Below are positions 37,840-45,110 of a DNA stretch of 64,000 bases, in pieces. Origin of the DNA: a virus (taxonomy: Duplodnaviria > Caudoviricetes); the IMG/VR virus record IMGVR_UViG_2901150838_000002, positions 4,005 through 68,004 of that record; one strand, 5' to 3'. The notes beneath the pieces are model-generated. The model was not told where the DNA came from, did not search any database, and worked only from the letters and a program-made list of their open reading frames with translations. The position numbers and the translations under genes were made by a program. Position 1 is the stretch's first letter, and the number at the start of each line of letters is the position of its first letter.

Positions 37840-39243
37840 TTACGCCGCATCGTCGGCAACTTTCCACGGAATCACTTTGAACCGGGCTATCAGTAACTGA
37901 TGGAATGTCTTGCTGTTCCAAACAAGGTACCGCAGCGCGTCCATAGAGTGATCATTTTCCTTGAGCGGAATCTCCGCTTTTTCTCCGGAAGCTCCTTCTG
38001 GATACCGGTAGTTTGTCAGCTCCTGAATCACATCTTTCAGGTGATCGCTGATAAAGATGTTTGGCCGCCCGTTGTCCGATTTCACTGTGAACAGCGATGC
38101 AACGGCACGAATACTAGGCTTTAGATGCTTCTTGGCCGCTTTTGCCGGCAGGCCGTTTGTCTGATAGGTCTTGATGTTACTCGGGTCTTCCTCGTCACAC
38201 CAAAACAGTCTGATCTTCCACTTTTTCATCAGCTCTTTATCCTGAGCCACCCAGCAATTCGGATCACCCGGAATGAGGATTTCCATCTGACGCTTATAGA
38301 TGGCATCGACGATCCACAGTTCCCCATTGGCTGTCATGGCACCAACCAATGTCACACCGGGATTTGTAAAGCCCCAGTCTTTACCGGCTTCAACCAAAAC
38401 AAAGTCGCCGTTTTCAAACTTCTGACGGCAGAGGGATTGCGGGACAACGTGAACAGAGCGGTCAAATTCTTCATACACCTGCCCAAAAAACACATCAAAC
38501 CGGGCAAAAATCTCCCGGTCAACATATCGCTTCGGCATGGTCTCGATCATGCGCTGTATATTCCTCTGCAGCTCAGGCAGTGGATTATCCTTGCTGGTCC
38601 AGTAGAAGTTTCGCCACTCTGGATCGTTTCGGTATTCTTCCAAATGCCCTCCAGCTGGCGTGTGTTGGCCGTTCAAGACGATTTCATGATAGAACCAGTT
38701 CATTCCTTCAGGCGTGGTCGTCCAAACGCTCCAGCCGCCTTTATCAGCGAGAGCATAGGAGAGATAACCACTCCATGTATCGGCCTTCATTTTCGATGCC
38801 TCATCCAGCCACACCCCACTCAAACCTTTACCAACGAGCGTTTTCGGCCTGTCAGCGGACTTGAACTGAATGAGAATGTACCCTTTCAGCCAGATACGGT
38901 TTTTTGACGCGTCCCAGTTCTCAATCATCTCTTCCGGGATTACCGCTGCCAGCTCTTCCTGCTGAATTTCCGACATGGAGTAGGTCGGCGATACGCACCA
39001 GTATTCCAGCCGCGGCTTCGGCTTTTTCATGACCTTCAAGTTTCGCGGGGGCTTATACGGCAGGCCCTTTCCTGCCTCAATGTCGGCCAGGATGTTATCA
39101 AAGAATTTTCGGGCCCCTACGTTGGTTTTGCCACCACGACGACCGCAGTTCATGACCACATTTCGAGCGTCGCACTCCATGACCTCAATCTGTTTTGCAT
39201 GAGGAGTCCAATCCGTGAAAGGATCAAGCATTAGGCTTGTCAC
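37840..39243 (-). CDS. terL: Terminase large subunit
   Basis: GRRGGKT, WLDEAS, TTTPEG, DWGFTNP, DHSMDALRY. Confidence 0.92.
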   Translation of the reverse strand: MTSLMLDPFTDWTPHAKQIEVMECDARNVVMNCGRRGGKTNVGARKFFDNILADIEAGKGLPYKPPRNLKVMKKPKPRLEYWCVSPTYSMSEIQQEELAAVIPEEMIENWDASKNRIWLKGYILIQFKSADRPKTLVGKGLSGVWLDEASKMKADTWSGYLSYALADKGGWSVWTTTPEGMNWFYHEIVLNGQHTPAGGHLEEYRNDPEWRNFYWTSKDNPLPELQRNIQRMIETMPKRYVDREIFARFDVFFGQVYEEFDRSVHVVPQSLCRQKFENGDFVLVEAGKDWGFTNPGVTLVGAMTANGELWIVDAIYKRQMEILIPGDPNCWVAQDKELMKKWKIRLFWCDEEDPSNIKTYQTNGLPAKAAKKHLKPSIRAVASLFTVKSDNGRPNIFISDHLKDVIQELTNYRYPEGASGEKAEIPLKENDHSMDALRYLVWNSKTFHQLLIARFKVIPWKVADDAA

Positions 39244-40006
39244 GTGACCACCTCCGCACGATGATTTCCTTCTCAGGACCACCGCCGTTGTTGACCAGCT
39301 GCGCCTTCAATTGAATGGCCTTCAATTTTTTGTCCTGGACGCGGGTCAGAGCTTCTTCCAAAGCGAGAATATCCTCAATTGCTCGGTACTCAGTCTCCTC
39401 TATCTCCGTTGTGACCAGCTCGTCGCGGGAACGGATGAAGGTTTTCGTTTCCCCGGATTTCTCATCATGAATTTGCACCGGCTCTTTGATGGTCAATCTC
39501 TCCTGCAGGACACGCCGTTGCTTCTCGGTTAACCCTTCGGTCAGTTTGCGAATGCGCATCATCATTTCCCGTTCGCGCCAAGCCAGCAAACGAATTTCAT
39601 CATCTGCTTGGCTGACAGGATCAAGGTCGATGCGATCAAGCACTTCCGCCTGCTCAGGAGTCAGAGCGTCCATCCAGATTGATTGATGTTCCCCTGTCCT
39701 CACAGCATTGGTGTTTCGTGGCGGTGCCCCGCCGCTGTTCCCGACAGCATTTCTGTTCCCAGGGGGAGCGCCCCCGCCGTTGCCTACGGCGTTCTTGTTA
39801 CCTTTCGGCGCGCCCCGTTTTTTTGTTGTACAACTTTCATCAGGCGATTGTTGTACAACATTCCATTTGTCGCGCTGCTTCCACACAGCAATGACCTTTT
39901 CATTCTCTCCAAGCATTTCCGCGATCTGGCGATTTGTTATGTCTCCATTGTGTTCAAGCCATATCTTGTATGCTTTATCACGATTGGGATTTCTCTCCCT
40001 CGGCAT
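39224..40006 (-). CDS. terS: Terminase small subunit
   Basis: MPRERNPNRDKA, WKQRDKW, repeated GAP.GN.NA. Confidence 0.9.
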   Translation of the reverse strand: MPRERNPNRDKAYKIWLEHNGDITNRQIAEMLGENEKVIAVWKQRDKWNVVQQSPDESCTTKKRGAPKGNKNAVGNGGGAPPGNRNAVGNSGGAPPRNTNAVRTGEHQSIWMDALTPEQAEVLDRIDLDPVSQADDEIRLLAWREREMMMRIRKLTEGLTEKQRRVLQERLTIKEPVQIHDEKSGETKTFIRSRDELVTTEIEETEYRAIEDILALEEALTRVQDKKLKAIQLKAQLVNNGGGPEKEIIVRRWSRDKPNA

Positions 40007-40606: not shown

Positions 40607-41902
40607 TTATGCTGCGTCGTGTTTTCTGCTGACAAGCACAGGTTCTATACCGGTGCTCTCATAGAAACGTCGCTTAATGACATCGCAGAATTTCGGATCA
40701 AGCTCCATCGTTCTGCATTCACGCCCCATCTGTTCACAGGTCATCAGTGTTGCACCGCTACCACCAAAGAAGTCAGCTGCAATATCCCCTTTCTGGCTGC
40801 TGTTACCGATCGGGATTGCAAGAAGATCCAGTGGTTTTTGTGTTGGATGGACATACTTACTGACGTCCCCGCGGGATACCTCCCATACTGTCTCTGGTTC
40901 CTGCTGTTCATCAGGTAATCCAGCCCGCCAAACAGTGGTTTGCTTTCGATCACCGTACCAAGCTGGTGCCTTGCCCTTCAAATGAGCATAAAACACAGGT
41001 TCATGCTTGTATTTGTACTGAGCAAACCCGAAGGTTGCCGCATTTTTCACCCACACACATTGCGTTCTGACCACGATGCCGGCTTTATTCATGGCATTTT
41101 CAAATTCACGCTGATACAGTGACGGATGGAAAACATAGATCGCAGCCTTTGGGTCCATGACAGTTGCATAGTTTAGGAAAACCTTGTCCAGAAATTCAAC
41201 GAACTGCTCCATTGGCATATCATCGTTGAGGATGCTTTCCCGCCCATCTGCTGCAAGCTCAGCTGACTCGCTTTCAAATGCGACGTTGTATGGAGGGTCC
41301 GTTACGACCAGGGCAGCCTTCTTACCATTCATCAACTGCAGGACGTCATCCAGATTTGTGGAGTCGCCGCACATCAGAAAATGCCTTCCCAGCTGCCAAA
41401 CGTCTCCATACATCGTCTCCGGCTCTTTGATATCATCAAGCGCTTTTCCGACGTCGAAATTATCGTCTACCACCGGCTCGTCGACTGCAATGTCCTGGTA
41501 CTGTACAAGCAGCGAGTTGATCTCCTCTTCTCCGAAACCGGTCAAACTGATATCAATGTCTGTCTGCTGCAGATCCGAGAGAACCTGAGCCAGCTTCTCC
41601 TCGTCCCAGCCCCCGCTGATTTTATTCAGGGCCAAATTGAGAGCCTTCTCTCTGCTATCGTCCAGGTCCACAACGGAAACCTCTACCTCGACGGCCCCCT
41701 GCTCGTTGACGAGGATTTTATACCGCTGATGCCCCCCAACGAGATTTCCGCTTCGCTCATTCCAAACAAGCGGCTCGACGTAACCGAATTCTTCAATCGA
41801 TCGTTTCAGCTTTTCGTAATCGGGATCACCAGGCTGCAGATCAATTCTTGGATTGTACGGAGCTGGGTTGATCAAAGAGACAGGTATTTTTCGTATGTCC
41901 AT
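40607..41902 (-). CDS. ParB-N fused N6/N4 DNA methyltransferase
   Basis: PAPYNPR, GGHQR, TDPPY, HPTQKP, DFFGGSG. Confidence 0.9.
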   Translation of the reverse strand: MDIRKIPVSLINPAPYNPRIDLQPGDPDYEKLKRSIEEFGYVEPLVWNERSGNLVGGHQRYKILVNEQGAVEVEVSVVDLDDSREKALNLALNKISGGWDEEKLAQVLSDLQQTDIDISLTGFGEEEINSLLVQYQDIAVDEPVVDDNFDVGKALDDIKEPETMYGDVWQLGRHFLMCGDSTNLDDVLQLMNGKKAALVVTDPPYNVAFESESAELAADGRESILNDDMPMEQFVEFLDKVFLNYATVMDPKAAIYVFHPSLYQREFENAMNKAGIVVRTQCVWVKNAATFGFAQYKYKHEPVFYAHLKGKAPAWYGDRKQTTVWRAGLPDEQQEPETVWEVSRGDVSKYVHPTQKPLDLLAIPIGNSSQKGDIAADFFGGSGATLMTCEQMGRECRTMELDPKFCDVIKRRFYESTGIEPVLVSRKHDAA

Positions 41903-42120
41903 GCTTTTCTGCTCCTTCTGGCAATAGTAGTAAGAATAAAGAATATTGCCAGCCCGAAAACGGCTGAATGCCTTGAGAGGCAAGGGCTGACATCGTTTTT
42001 TTGAGCGCTACAAAGTAACTACTTTTCGAGCGGAAAAGTATACGTTTTGTATCACTGCCAAAATCTATGGTCGTGCTTAGAGCGACAAGGCTTCTGAGCC
42101 TATGTGATTCCGGCGACCCC

Positions 42121-42639
42121 CTATTCGGAATTCGGGTCTTCCCCGGCCTCCGTGATCTCCTGTCTAAATAGCTGCAGGAGAGATGTTTCCGCTGCCTTCC
42201 CGTTAAGCGAGAACAGCGGGTTTATTGCCAGGGCTGTCCTTCCATCGGTTTCGACGCGCCGGAGAATCCGCTGCTCAATAAATGATTTGACGATCTTTCT
42301 GGCCTGCGGATAGGAGCAGTCGGCAACTCTGGCAAGGTCCTTGACAGTGAGCGGTATGCCTTTCTGGCCGCGCTCATTGTCTCCTTCAAGAAGATTCGTC
42401 CCCTCGCTGGCATACGGAGTGATCTTCAATAAAAAACCAGCCTCAGCGAGTGACAGCTTCCTGAGCCGTCGCTTTGCCTTCTGGCTGGCTTTGATCTTTA
42501 CGAATTTTGCGCTGCGCCCTGCTGGACGGAAAACCTTGACGATCTCATCCGGGCGCCGGAGGATTTGCTCCTCATAGAAAACCTCTCCGGTCTCTGGGTC
42601 AACGAATTGACGCACTACATGATCACCACCACCTGCCAT
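42121..42639 (-). CDS. RepL-like winged-HTH protein
   Basis: VDPETGEV, FVKI, HTH, INP...G. Confidence 0.6.
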   Translation of the reverse strand: MAGGGDHVVRQFVDPETGEVFYEEQILRRPDEIVKVFRPAGRSAKFVKIKASQKAKRRLRKLSLAEAGFLLKITPYASEGTNLLEGDNERGQKGIPLTVKDLARVADCSYPQARKIVKSFIEQRILRRVETDGRTALAINPLFSLNGKAAETSLLQLFRQEITEAGEDPNSE

Positions 42640-42695
42640 AATTACGCATAAAAAAGGGAGTCACGACTTCTGCCGCACTCCCTTTAGTGTTTTGC

Positions 42696-43097
42696 CTATA
42701 CAACTGTAATTCCAGCCTGGCGTAGATATTCATCAAAGCTGTAACCGTGAATAGAATTTACGATTTGACCAAGCTTATACTGTTCCTCTGTGATAGTCAT
42801 GCCGTCCAACTTAGGATAAGGGATATAGGAACGGTGGCCATCAACAGCAACTGTAAAAAACTGCTCAATAATGCTGTCATTGAACTGCAAAAAGTATATT
42901 TTTCTTCTTGCATTCTTATCAGGGAAACTTCTTGCCCAATCCTCGTAAAAACCGTCATCCCCTACTGGTTCAGAACGATCTGATAGAATTGAGATTCTGA
43001 TGTCCCCTTTGAAAATAAACTTACCTAGTTCGTCGTCGTAAAGCCAATCCTCTTCATCGGAATTGGTAATCAACGACTTAAAATCATCATATCTCAC
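42696..43097 (-). CDS. Hypothetical moron protein
   Basis: GTG start after GAGGAGGTG; AT-rich. Confidence 0.7.
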   Translation of the reverse strand: MRYDDFKSLITNSDEEDWLYDDELGKFIFKGDIRISILSDRSEPVGDDGFYEDWARSFPDKNARRKIYFLQFNDSIIEQFFTVAVDGHRSYIPYPKLDGMTITEEQYKLGQIVNSIHGYSFDEYLRQAGITVV

Positions 43098-43159
43098 AGA
43101 CAATTCACCTCCTCTTGTCATTCTTCGACATTTAGGAGGATTTTCCTGTAACATTTTTA

Positions 43160-43700
43160 CTATTCCCCCACTTCCTTCGGCAGGGGGAGCTCCGCCGCGA
43201 GCCAATCCTTATGCCTGCTGCGGTCACAGACTGTAGGAGGTGGTGCAGCTGGGCCTGCAAACCCAAACCAGCAAGCATTTGCCCCTTACTTGCTGCAAAT
43301 GACACGTCCACTGCACTCTTAGGGAGGATCGGCGTATCGAATATGAGAGGTACTGGACAAGGGGCGAGGGGCCGGAGCCGTAGGTCTCGCATGTAATCCC
43401 CTGTCCGGTATATCCCAGATGTATACTGTCGCTCTCAGCGTTCACCCAGGCAGATGGGAGTCATGTGAATCGTGATCGCGACGGACACAGACACAAAGAT
43501 CAAACAGAAATCTTGTTCCTCCGTAGCGCCCGCCGCACCTAACACCCCAATAAGGAATGTGCATGCTCTCATCGTCATGCGCGCAAATAGGACTCCAGCT
43601 GCTCTGCCTGTTCGACTGCAACGCTCATCGCCCCTACGTATCGCCCCGAGTACCGCCGTTGATAAGGGAGGATACGGTATCTCCCAAGAGCAAAACTCTT
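43160..43700 (-). ncRNA. Large structured ncRNA candidate at 5' end of late operon
   Basis: No credible ORF; at least six nested long-range helices plus 3' hairpins (see findings). Confidence 0.65.
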
Positions 43701-43741
43701 AACTCAAGGGTACCGATCCGGCCAAATAAAAACGTCCAGCA

Positions 43742-43808
43742 TTTTGTCCTCATTTTTTTCCATATTTTTCTCCGGGTTTTGTCCTACTTTTTGTCGGACT
43801 TTTTTCGA
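43742..43808 (-). promoter_or_regulatory. Phased ~12-bp repeats (GGACAAAA-like), putative ArpU activator sites of late promoter
   Basis: Six TTTT(G/T/C)TC(C/G) units just downstream of arpU. Confidence 0.6.
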
Positions 43809-43826
43809 GAAATTGAAAAACGGCAC

Positions 43827-44213
43827 TCAAATGATCCGGAGTGCCGTCGCGAGCTGGAATATCGCCTCTCGCTTTTTGATGTAGTATTGGTCTTTCGTCA
43901 GACCCAGTTCCAGATACACATTGATATCGTTCACTCTGGCCGGGCTGAGATATTTCTCCTCGATGATCTTCCTTTCTATTTCATCCAGTGAGTATTGGAG
44001 TGCCCGCTCGATCTGTCTGGCTTTCAGGTCGTTTTTTGTCTCTGACTGATGCAACCTTGGAAAAAGCTGATCAATTCCCTTCTCGGCCTGCTCTTGTTTG
44101 TTTTGTACGGCGACACGGAGGGCTTTGTATGCCTTCAGCTCTTTTACAACAGCCTTACGGACCTCTCTTTCGTTCACTGGTTGCAGAAAGGATAATTGCT
44201 CTGGAGCGCTCAT
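43827..44213 (-). CDS. ArpU-family late transcriptional activator
   Basis: ERKIIEEKYL...YYIKKREAIFQLATAL. Confidence 0.88.
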   Translation of the reverse strand: MSAPEQLSFLQPVNEREVRKAVVKELKAYKALRVAVQNKQEQAEKGIDQLFPRLHQSETKNDLKARQIERALQYSLDEIERKIIEEKYLSPARVNDINVYLELGLTKDQYYIKKREAIFQLATALRII

Positions 44214-44297
44214 CTTCCATTCCCCCTTGTCCGGTTCCAATGGTATAATTTTCTTGGCTGAAATACCTTGGGCTCCCGGATAGGGGGCTATTTTTGT

Positions 44298-45110
44298 TTA
44301 CTGTTTTTTCAAGAGCAACTCACTGCCCGATGCTTTCACAAGCTTTGTCACCTCGTCCACGTCTCTTTTTATGCGCTCTATAGCTCGTTTCATATCAGGA
44401 TGGATACCCTGCCCGATCATTTCCACGACATCCCTCGGCCACCATGAGTACCGGACGTTTATTCCTGCTTTTTCGGCAGCTTCTTTGATTAGAGCTAGCT
44501 GTTCACCCTTATTTCCGCCGTATCTCAGCTCATCTTCCAGCTCCTTCACCTTTTTCCTCAATGCACTGATCTCATCGAATAACCGTCCCTTAAATTCCTG
44601 GCCGATACGCAGACGTGCTTCTTTTTGCGAGAGGTATGATTCGATCATCTCCCGTCGATCACTGAAAAACGGATGGCGGTCAGAGTCAGTCCGAGACAGA
44701 AGGATGTAATACAACAGGTCAGCTGGCATCTCGATTAGGCGATATTTTGCTGGGCGCTTTGTCACCAACGCACCAGAATCTGGGTAGTACCAGATCAGCC
44801 CTACTTCGGTTGTTAGTTCCTCTGGTGCTATCAATCCTTTTGGGCAAACAAAGCTGAAACAATGGCAATGCTGCAGGTATCCAGGCCACTTTTCGTCTTT
44901 GAGGAAGTCACTACGGCTTACCTTTACTTCGTATCCTGTCAGGCGCGGCTTTGCCCAGCTTTTCTTTATCGCAAATGCATCGAACTTCAACAACTCATTG
45001 CTTCCCCATGTCGCTCCGGTCTTTACCTCTGTAAGGAAAACATCGTCAGTGTGCCGCTTAGCCAACGCGCGTTTAATCTCGTCCGCCTTGACGTTTGTCT
45101 TTTTGGTCAC
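44298..45110 (-). CDS. MmcB-like PD-(D/E)XK nuclease
   Basis: FDAFA...GYEVKVSRSDF. Confidence 0.7.
   Translation of the reverse strand: MTKKTNVKADEIKRALAKRHTDDVFLTEVKTGATWGSNELLKFDAFAIKKSWAKPRLTGYEVKVSRSDFLKDEKWPGYLQHCHCFSFVCPKGLIAPEELTTEVGLIWYYPDSGALVTKRPAKYRLIEMPADLLYYILLSRTDSDRHPFFSDRREMIESYLSQKEARLRIGQEFKGRLFDEISALRKKVKELEDELRYGGNKGEQLALIKEAAEKAGINVRYSWWPRDVVEMIGQGIHPDMKRAIERIKRDVDEVTKLVKASGSELLLKKQ

Follow-up and report, generated by a model that had tools for sequence, protein, structure and literature searches.

An apparently undescribed family of modular, pseudoknotted RNAs at the head of phage late genes

What fills the roughly 730 nucleotides (nt) without a credible open reading frame (ORF) that lie downstream of an ArpU-like late activator gene in a phage of the class Caudoviricetes? 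The phage is IMG/VR record IMGVR_UViG_2901150838_000002, of which we analyzed positions 4,005-68,004; this whole stretch of 64,000 nt is called the window, and all coordinates are window positions. The genes around the gap are all on the minus strand, and an RNA heading the late genes is read from that strand. The G+C content is 52-56.5% over 43160-43720 vs 39.5-43.5% just downstream and 43-48.5% upstream, and both strands of 43160-43720 carry just short overlapping ORFs of 47-86 amino acids (aa). These values, the ORF list and the direct repeats at 43742-43804 bear out an earlier annotation made from the letters of the window (the sequence-only reading), which had seen a GC-rich gap without a credible ORF directly after the repeats and had placed a structured phage RNA where the late region starts; covariation across relatives shows that such an RNA exists and is conserved. 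That reading drew the RNA as one nested multi-helix fold of ~530 nt. The element is modular and consists of a 5' domain, a hairpin that we call B1 and a 176-nt core, the widely kept unit being a pseudoknotted core of 102-179 nt. We consider it almost certain that this leader RNA belongs to an undescribed family of modular pseudoknotted RNAs carried on the late-gene strand by temperate phages of one bacterial class, and it probably helps to control the late-gene expression of the phage.

In a first set of 17 core sequences, 96.8% of the cells paired vs 31-47% with slid partners. A covariance model of the core built without the pseudoknot (R1) gave 68 matches, which represent 52 distinct cores, and their alignment was fitted to R1 and thereby favours the modelled helices. 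In this alignment 95.5% of the pair cells were standard (35-49% with slid partners), both sides had changed at 33 of 34 pairs, doubly changed cells numbered 241 vs 25-44, the covariation score was 0.374 vs 0.035-0.065, and none of 500 shuffles reached any of these measures. The pseudoknot was 97.9% paired though it had been left out of R1. Covariation among homologues, a check of the kind that the sequence-only reading had recommended, gave strong support for the core, and B1 has separate support. The z-scores of single-sequence minimum free energy (MFE) were -1.46 on the minus strand (10/100 shuffles as good) and -1.02 on the plus strand (17/100), no better than chance, and because of the pseudoknots such z-scores are weak and the single-sequence MFE structures misleading.

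The sequence-only reading gave no strand. Because G-U cells outnumber A-C cells by 114 to 25 in the paired columns, the helices are read as minus-strand RNA and not as DNA cruciforms. This strand-specific asymmetry also bears on the idea that the region works as DNA, be it in packaging (cos or pac), as a boundary of recombination or mosaicism, or in binding the activator. Such a function would suit the position between the late activator and the terminase genes, the mosaic breakpoints past B1 (six loci are interrupted by unrelated DNA just past this hairpin) and the five of 15 motif-bearing IMG/VR contigs that start or stop within ~0.9 kb of the motif; however, assembly is expected to break contigs at a repeated conserved element, compensatory changes preserve the helices as the sequence shifts, and the pseudoknot covaries, so a DNA-level feature is very improbable. 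The contig ends themselves (L104, L113, L106, L105 and L114) could be assembly breaks of this kind or could mark nearby physical genome ends.

The core comprises the helices P1-P4 (Table 1). Across the core set the P3 loop carries GACCGCAG, and it pairs with a GCGG strand that starts three nucleotides past P1; this pseudoknot changes from CCGC/GCGG to CCAC/GUGG, CCGU/ACGG, CUGC/GCAG and UCCC/GGGA, all of them compensatory variants. The loop of the optional hairpin P2a (43277-43288) keeps a GGGGCAAAU motif while the sequence of the P2a stem varies, and its GGGG occurs together with CCC(C/U) in the junction J1/2 in 22 of the 52 cores, both are missing in 24, and six are discordant. This co-occurrence among related sequences, a lead rather than proof, suggests a second, loop-junction pseudoknot. 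The junction J2/3, which we take to resemble the 3' end of 16S rRNA, is complementary to the ribosome-binding site AGGAGGUG of the first downstream gene, ORF1, as read off the sequence, and is a possible anti-Shine-Dalgarno segment. The CCUCCU of the tail past P4 can likewise pair with the ORF1 Shine-Dalgarno sequence AGGAGG, and these tail pairings are putative. Two further pairings were tried: that of the J2/3 CCUCC with a GGAGG after the pseudoknot was rejected, as the GGAGG varies uncompensated, and that of the P3 loop with a downstream conserved terminator was dropped, ~5 bp being possible with no consistent covariation. Just 3' of P4, in the window (43098-43163, minus strand) and in the equivalent tails of relatives, there are activator-box-like sequences (UAGUAAAAA, UAGUCAAAA or UAUAGACAA), a hint of either another site for regulator binding or a promoter past the core.

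The fold of the 5' domain was resolved only in part. Its hairpin H1 covaries among 20 sequences (A-U to G-C in two, G-C to A-U in four), and where it has the long-range helix 43591-43610/43447-43462, another subtype has CGAGAGGGG/CCCCUCUCG, which differs in sequence and is again perfectly complementary; RNAalifold overlooked the long-range helix, the subtypes being misaligned. In B1 (31 distinct sequences) 93.3% of the cells paired vs 42-55% with slid partners, and both sides had changed at 9 pairs (31 cells) vs 2-7 pairs (2-13 cells). A MAFFT alignment of the whole element from 30 loci had too many gaps to be of use, and the modularity was revealed by the blocks of blastn matches. The 57 base pairs of the ~530-nt fold can be drawn on the minus strand, but as a set they were not above shuffles in 14 full-length relatives (66.3% of cells paired, where shuffles averaged 64.9% and slid partners gave 33-49%; both-side changes at 6 pairs vs 5.4 in shuffles). 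Its outer long-range helices (43671-43690/43316-43338, 43641-43654/43349-43367, 43633-43638/43379-43384 and 43620-43625/43437-43442) are unsupported and clash with covarying helices. Its innermost helix is the long-range helix of the 5' domain and held by the complement of the other subtype; the hairpin GGACAGGGG/CCCCUUGUCC, offered as an alternative, is B1, and the 3'-domain hairpins GUGCAG/CUGCAC and CAGCAAGU/GCUUGCUG are P2 and P2a, both upheld by covariation.

The leader region is non-coding. Only 91 of 1110 pairwise indels were multiples of 3, the variable columns were spread flatly over the codon positions (0.68/0.69/0.68 and 0.35/0.36/0.33), and relatives have stop-free stretches of 89-191 codons but in frames that differ among them; no conserved protein-coding signal, which the sequence-only reading had named as grounds for giving up the RNA, was found by indels, codon periodicity or frames. 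The same reading had suggested a member of the ROOL or GOLLD classes and a cmscan search against Rfam. With Rfam 15, no family matched in the whole window at gathering scores, in 42900-44000 at E values up to 10 or in 12 diverse relatives at E values up to 0.5, and the only hits were chance snoRNA and miRNA matches far under gathering scores. A ROOL or GOLLD RNA, or else a missed protein-coding gene, would fit the large size, the prophage location and the stop-free stretches; against the scan, which found nothing at the thresholds tried and within the sensitivity of these tools, and against the indels, codon positions and shifting frames, either is extremely improbable. In the full-text literature, supplements left aside, we found no published description of the leader RNA, and the supplementary motif lists of PMC5737381 could bear on its novelty. 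Judged from the sequences, this is apparently an undescribed RNA family with strong comparative support, and more than a GC-rich gap arisen by chance.

Its own genome has one copy of the element. Among 60 other genomes of its family, 31 contain pieces of it by blastn; with its own genus counted, 7 of 10 genera are represented, and a genome has up to 10 matches. R1 found the core in 27 of these 60 genomes. Of 150 further genomes drawn from the class, 10 had it; they belong to five families, and one of them has eight copies. In 150 others drawn from the phylum R1 found none. The matches were 102-179 nt long, apart from one of 270 nt and one of 85 nt. Blastn searches of 50,697 phage records (INPHARED), with the element of the window and with three divergent cores as queries, gave no match, and an R1 scan with filters off did not find the core in the ArpU-bearing Bacillus phages phi105, vB_BteM-A9Y and 0105phi7-2 (best score 3.8 bits). 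A sequence pattern with wrong spacer lengths and one wrong fixed base gave 13 hits, mostly in high-GC unrelated taxa, which we regard as chance; none matches R1. The ArpU relatives and the types of small proteins suggest that the host class is Bacilli.

The modules vary in relatives. In some, the 5' domain is swapped for a terminator-like hairpin and a small basic ORF with its stop codon inside B1, and in others without a 5' domain the terminator-like hairpin leads directly into the core. In six loci (L017, L021, L023, L029, L031 and L038) a small basic ORF of ~43-60 aa (...VKIT.P..W.DCV.A.REKEKRKWQRKLEAQRTG...) ends in the B1 5' strand or loop; its translation would unwind B1, and its Arg/Lys-rich tail recalls RNA-binding peptides. 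One locus (L010, ~1180-1500) has an insert of ~300 nt with a small Cys-rich ORF (~73 aa, CxxC motifs) between the 5' domain and B1.

Table 1. Positions of the leader RNA, its parts and the neighbouring genes in the window
Feature	Position	Strand	Basis or remark
ArpU-like late transcriptional activator gene	43827-44240	-	phrog_248 'transcriptional activator', E 2.1e-25; context, not part of the RNA
Terminator-like hairpin of activator gene, arms ACGGCACTC/GAGTGCCGT	43820-43847	-	Inverted repeat, 9 nt, 100% complementary
Direct repeats, GGACAAAA-type boxes (plus strand: TTTTGTCC)	43742-43804	-	Repeat family; boxes kept upstream of the RNA in relatives
5' domain of leader RNA	43420-43726	-	24 distinct homologues (nhmmer)
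H1 hairpin in 5' domain, AAGAG/CUCUU	43686-43700	-	Covariation
B1, four stacked helices forming a long hairpin, tip GGC-UCCG-GCC	43345-43416	-	Covariation
Core RNA, 176 nt, P1-P4	43164-43339	-	R1 match, 154.8 bits
P1, CCGAUCCU/AGGAUUGG	5' strand 43325-43332 with 43202-43209	-	Both-side changes at 7/8 pairs, 95.3% of cells paired (52 sequences)
J1/2, CCCUAAGA	43317-43324	-	CCC(C/U), proposed partner of P2a-loop GGGG
P2, GUGCAG/CUGCAC	43311-43316 with 43243-43248	-	Covariation at 6/6 pairs
P2a, optional hairpin within P2	43289-43295 with 43269-43275	-	7/7 pairs covary, 97.1% of cells paired
J2/3, CACCUCCUACA	43232-43242	-	CCUCC-like motif in 34/52 cores
P3 hairpin, loop UGACCGCAG	43227-43231 with 43213-43217	-	Covariation at 5/5 pairs
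Pseudoknot, CCGC (P3 loop) with GCGG	43220-43223 with 43195-43198	-	4/4 pairs covary, 97.9% of cells paired
P4 hairpin, CCCCC/GGGGG, conserved 13-nt loop UGCCGAAGGAAGU	43165-43187	-	4/4 pairs covary, 95.2% of cells paired
'Type i' tail, AGGA/UCCU mini-hairpin and CCUCCU segment	43098-43163	-	Kept upstream of unrelated first genes
ORF1, variable first gene of the cassette, 133 aa	42696-43097	-	GGAGGU lies 9 nt ahead of the likely GTG start; neither Pfam nor PHROG gave a family
Intrinsic terminator closing ORF1, GGGAGU...ACUCCC then U6	42650-42682	-	Terminator scan and sequence
ORF2, winged-helix-like, downstream of ORF1 terminator	42121-42639	-	Uncharacterised
ParB-methyltransferase fusion gene	40607-41983	-	
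Small terminase gene	39224-40006	-	

The nearest phage kin of the activator are Bacillus phages phi105, rho14 and others (35-51% identity). Its terminator-like hairpin overlaps its stop codon and has a U run 3' of it on the minus strand, and the GGACAAAA-type repeats beyond it are, from their sequence and place, the presumed late-promoter or activator-binding region. Because 10 of the 34 upstream ORFs scanned are ArpU-like (phrog_248), phrog_1058/36-type or phage sigma factors, the RNA follows late regulators of several families. The next gene is always co-oriented with the core, and most loci have a strong Shine-Dalgarno sequence 35-110 nt past P4. The first genes downstream differ between phages: 25 of 39 match nothing in PHROG, 27 of 31 match no Pfam family, those that could be named are integrase-like, HNH, small terminase, ParB-like and protease genes, and several others encode small membrane peptides. 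In 22 of the 52 loci a conserved terminator (AGCACC-N-GGUGCU-Un) lies on the same strand 175-1379 nt downstream and abuts the stop codon of the first gene; the window has a strong terminator of another type, located past ORF1 and ahead of the conserved late genes. In run X19, one metatranscriptome contig spans only ORF1 (42688-43084) at depth 202, its neighbours being uncovered, and ORF1, the N-terminal part of which is acidic, might be an accessory gene expressed in lysogeny; a contig of ORF1-ORF2 from a 95%-identical relative reached a depth of 101-182.

Regarding function, we tentatively favour a cis-acting processive antiterminator, to which we give a probability of roughly 0.3 on the basis of the covariation-supported fold, the leader position, the independence from the next gene and the terminators between the RNA and the essential late genes; antitermination, one of the roles named by the sequence-only reading, thus stands as a candidate. 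The RNA would be transcribed as the 5' leader of the late transcript from the activator-dependent promoter, would fold co-transcriptionally and would act in cis on the elongating RNA polymerase. The polymerase would then ignore the terminator of the ORF1 cassette and those further on, and the terminase and morphogenesis genes would be reached only by transcripts that start at the activator-dependent late promoter. This would be the logic of HK022 put, of EAR and of canT of Tn916. In broader terms, and short of even odds, the doubly pseudoknotted leader may be an RNA-only 'licence' for transcription or translation of the late genes, which either reprograms the polymerase past terminators or senses a host or phage signal before commitment to virions, and which is reused class-wide at the head of exchangeable cargo cassettes.

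Several observations weigh against antitermination. At least 14 of the 52 cores have a terminator-like hairpin within 120 nt upstream, which counts against it because the polymerase meets that hairpin before the RNA is made. Core-gene-terminator cassettes stand in tandem in genomes G095, G034, G036 and G027, an arrangement that counts against it because a processive element explains it no better, and perhaps less well, than a per-cassette regulator. Several G095 cores lead not into a nearby gene but into a U run and terminators on the opposite strand, and some cassettes past a terminator carry their own sigma-A-like promoter. Two conserved tail types join P4 to the Shine-Dalgarno sequence, both with anti-Shine-Dalgarno segments, which points to translational control. 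Rfam, in which we presume EAR to be included, detected no likeness of the core to put or EAR. In contigs from four RNA-library runs covering 42000-44600 the depth of the region was 2.8-12.8, about that of the activator gene, and such contigs are blind to strand, ends and transcription.

The upstream hairpins, tandem cassettes and anti-Shine-Dalgarno tails fit a per-cassette translational or ligand-responsive leader about as well. Such a cis-regulatory leader, riboswitch-like or protein-binding, would let the state of the core gate the sequestration of the ORF1 ribosome-binding site by J2/3 (CACCUCCU) and the tail CCUCCU. We rate this explanation only a little below antitermination. The core shows the conserved, covariation-supported structure of an aptamer, with conserved junction and loop nucleotides, variable peripheral stems and pseudoknots; both tail types hold a segment complementary to the Shine-Dalgarno sequence and a competing mini-hairpin; the CCUCC-like motif of J2/3 is missing in several G095 copies without a nearby downstream gene; and the tandem cassettes look like self-contained expression units. 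However, classical riboswitches precede genes of one pathway, whereas the downstream genes here are heterogeneous and mostly of no known family, the G095 copies retain the full core with no gene to regulate, and any strong Shine-Dalgarno sequence complements CCUCC by definition; no covariation was found that links the core to the tail or to the Shine-Dalgarno sequence.

The G095 copies also raise the thought of a stand-alone RNA, co-transcribed with the late leader or processed from it, that acts in trans or as a structural component (a decoy for host defence or a host factor, or a cofactor of assembly or packaging). These copies are bracketed by an upstream terminator hairpin and by P4 with a U run and have no adjacent downstream gene (five of the eight come after an ORF for a tiny membrane peptide with a terminator hairpin, and a U run closes them), the core fold is kept irrespective of its neighbours, and terminase genes are near. 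On the other hand, no conserved promoter was seen directly upstream of the core, the P4 of the window has no U tract, and most loci continue into a co-oriented gene with a strong Shine-Dalgarno sequence, so we regard this explanation as unlikely. Unlikely too, at about the same low level, is a ribozyme, self-cleaving or processing, by which the late polycistronic transcript would be cut at the borders between cassettes. It would agree with up to eight model matches per genome, with the tandem arrays in heterogeneous, phage-linked gene contexts, and with a compact core that has a pseudoknot, a probable second one and near-invariant single-stranded nucleotides, in which the order of P1, P3, the P3-loop pairing just after P1 and P4 resembles part of the topology of hepatitis delta virus (HDV)-like ribozymes. 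Yet no Rfam ribozyme family matches, a long-range P2 is missing, P1 starts with C and not with the G of the HDV-like rule, and 102-179 nt exceeds most small ribozymes; an RNA-library contig that ends at 43168, inside P4, is no evidence of cleavage and probably reflects assembly at a repeated conserved element.

The cassettes contain further recurrent parts. The terminator AGCACC-N(3-10)-GGUGCU with a U run lies ~176 nt past the core in L004, L006, L025, L067 and L012 and 253-1379 nt past it in 17 other loci; it also occurs 65-87 nt upstream of four cores and may be a cassette boundary or recombination point. A second conserved hairpin, GCCACUCGG...CCGGGUGGC with a U run, precedes a Shine-Dalgarno sequence and follows sigma-A-like promoters or repeat boxes at a distance of ~40-60 nt; it stands upstream of the core in L017, L021, L023, L028, L029, L031, L038 and L052 and after the cassette terminator in L012, L014 and L025, and it looks like a promoter-proximal attenuator or an antiterminator target. 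The cassettes that precede five of the eight G095 cores (L084 7900-10800, minus strand; L085 5200-6300 and 7700-8800, plus strand; L070, L075, L079, L082 and L083) are composed of one terminator hairpin, a hairpin of 8 bp (CACCCCUC/GAGGGGUG) in which the Shine-Dalgarno sequence is sequestered, an ORF for a Gly/Tyr-tailed membrane peptide of ~45 aa and a second terminator hairpin; IS110-type and Mutator-type transposases occur in the region too, as does a degraded ArpU-like gene. Phage phi105, which has an ArpU homologue and no core, carries two annotated terminators (L099, 5092-5166) past its late-activator region and ahead of the HNH, cos and terminase genes, and having terminators before packaging genes may be general in this phage group.

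In temperate phages of Gram-positive bacteria, the step from the late activator (ArpU, RinA and sigma-like families) to full expression of the late operon is poorly understood, and a covariation-supported RNA at this junction is a concrete, testable element. If it were an antiterminator, the known RNA processive antiterminators would number about four, this one being the first whose fold is backed by covariation, and it would offer a well-defined fold for studying the control of RNA polymerase by RNA; a sensor or ribozyme function would establish a new class. In any case, leader RNA, variable gene and conserved terminator form a conserved 'slot' with dozens of uncharacterised phage accessory genes, which gives a handle for gene mining.

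Among known systems, late control in lambda has a similar order of late regulator gene, promoter region with boxes, promoter-proximal terminator and late genes. There the antiterminator protein Q is loaded at the promoter PR' and lets the polymerase pass tR' with no structured RNA needed, and lytic transcription runs through the terminators that accessory genes carry; in the present family sigma-like or ArpU-like regulators are found, and the leader contains a conserved RNA. HDV-like ribozymes form a nested double pseudoknot of P1, P1.1, a long-range P2, P3 and P4 and cleave 5' of the G that opens P1. The core shares with them a P1 that encloses P3, a P3 loop that pairs just 3' of P1 and a following P4, but differs in that its P2 is a local hairpin, a 3-nt linker precedes the 4-bp loop pairing, no Rfam model matches and P1 opens with C in 39 of 52 cores. 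HK022 put consists of two simple stem-loops of ~70 nt. Like put and EAR, the leader would be a promoter-proximal, cis-acting RNA of a long operon with internal terminators; unlike them, its core has 102-179 nt in most matches (176 here), a pseudoknot and a probable second, and optional domains. The ROOL and GOLLD RNAs are described in passages of PMC5737381 as large, ornate, prophage-associated Firmicute RNAs near tRNA genes; our family is likewise a prophage-associated structured RNA, but it keeps a fixed place between the late activator and the first late gene, its conserved unit is much smaller, and neither model matches. A further comparison is with canT of Tn916, which passages of PMC11658703 present as a cis-acting RNA processive antiterminator of 350-450 nt in a Firmicute mobile element, alongside HK022 put and Bacillus EAR as RNA-only processive antiterminators; according to these, its function was shown by reporters and its structure is an MFE prediction only. 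Rfam is nowhere mentioned in that paper. The leader family differs in its covariation-supported fold and in that its cores often have terminator-like hairpins upstream as well. By description, not by sequence, and as far as those passages describe canT, it is an orientation-specific RNA of several hundred nucleotides in a Firmicute mobile element, indifferent to the identity of the downstream gene and located downstream of the main promoter and upstream of the terminators that insulate a long operon, and the leader would resemble it in these respects.

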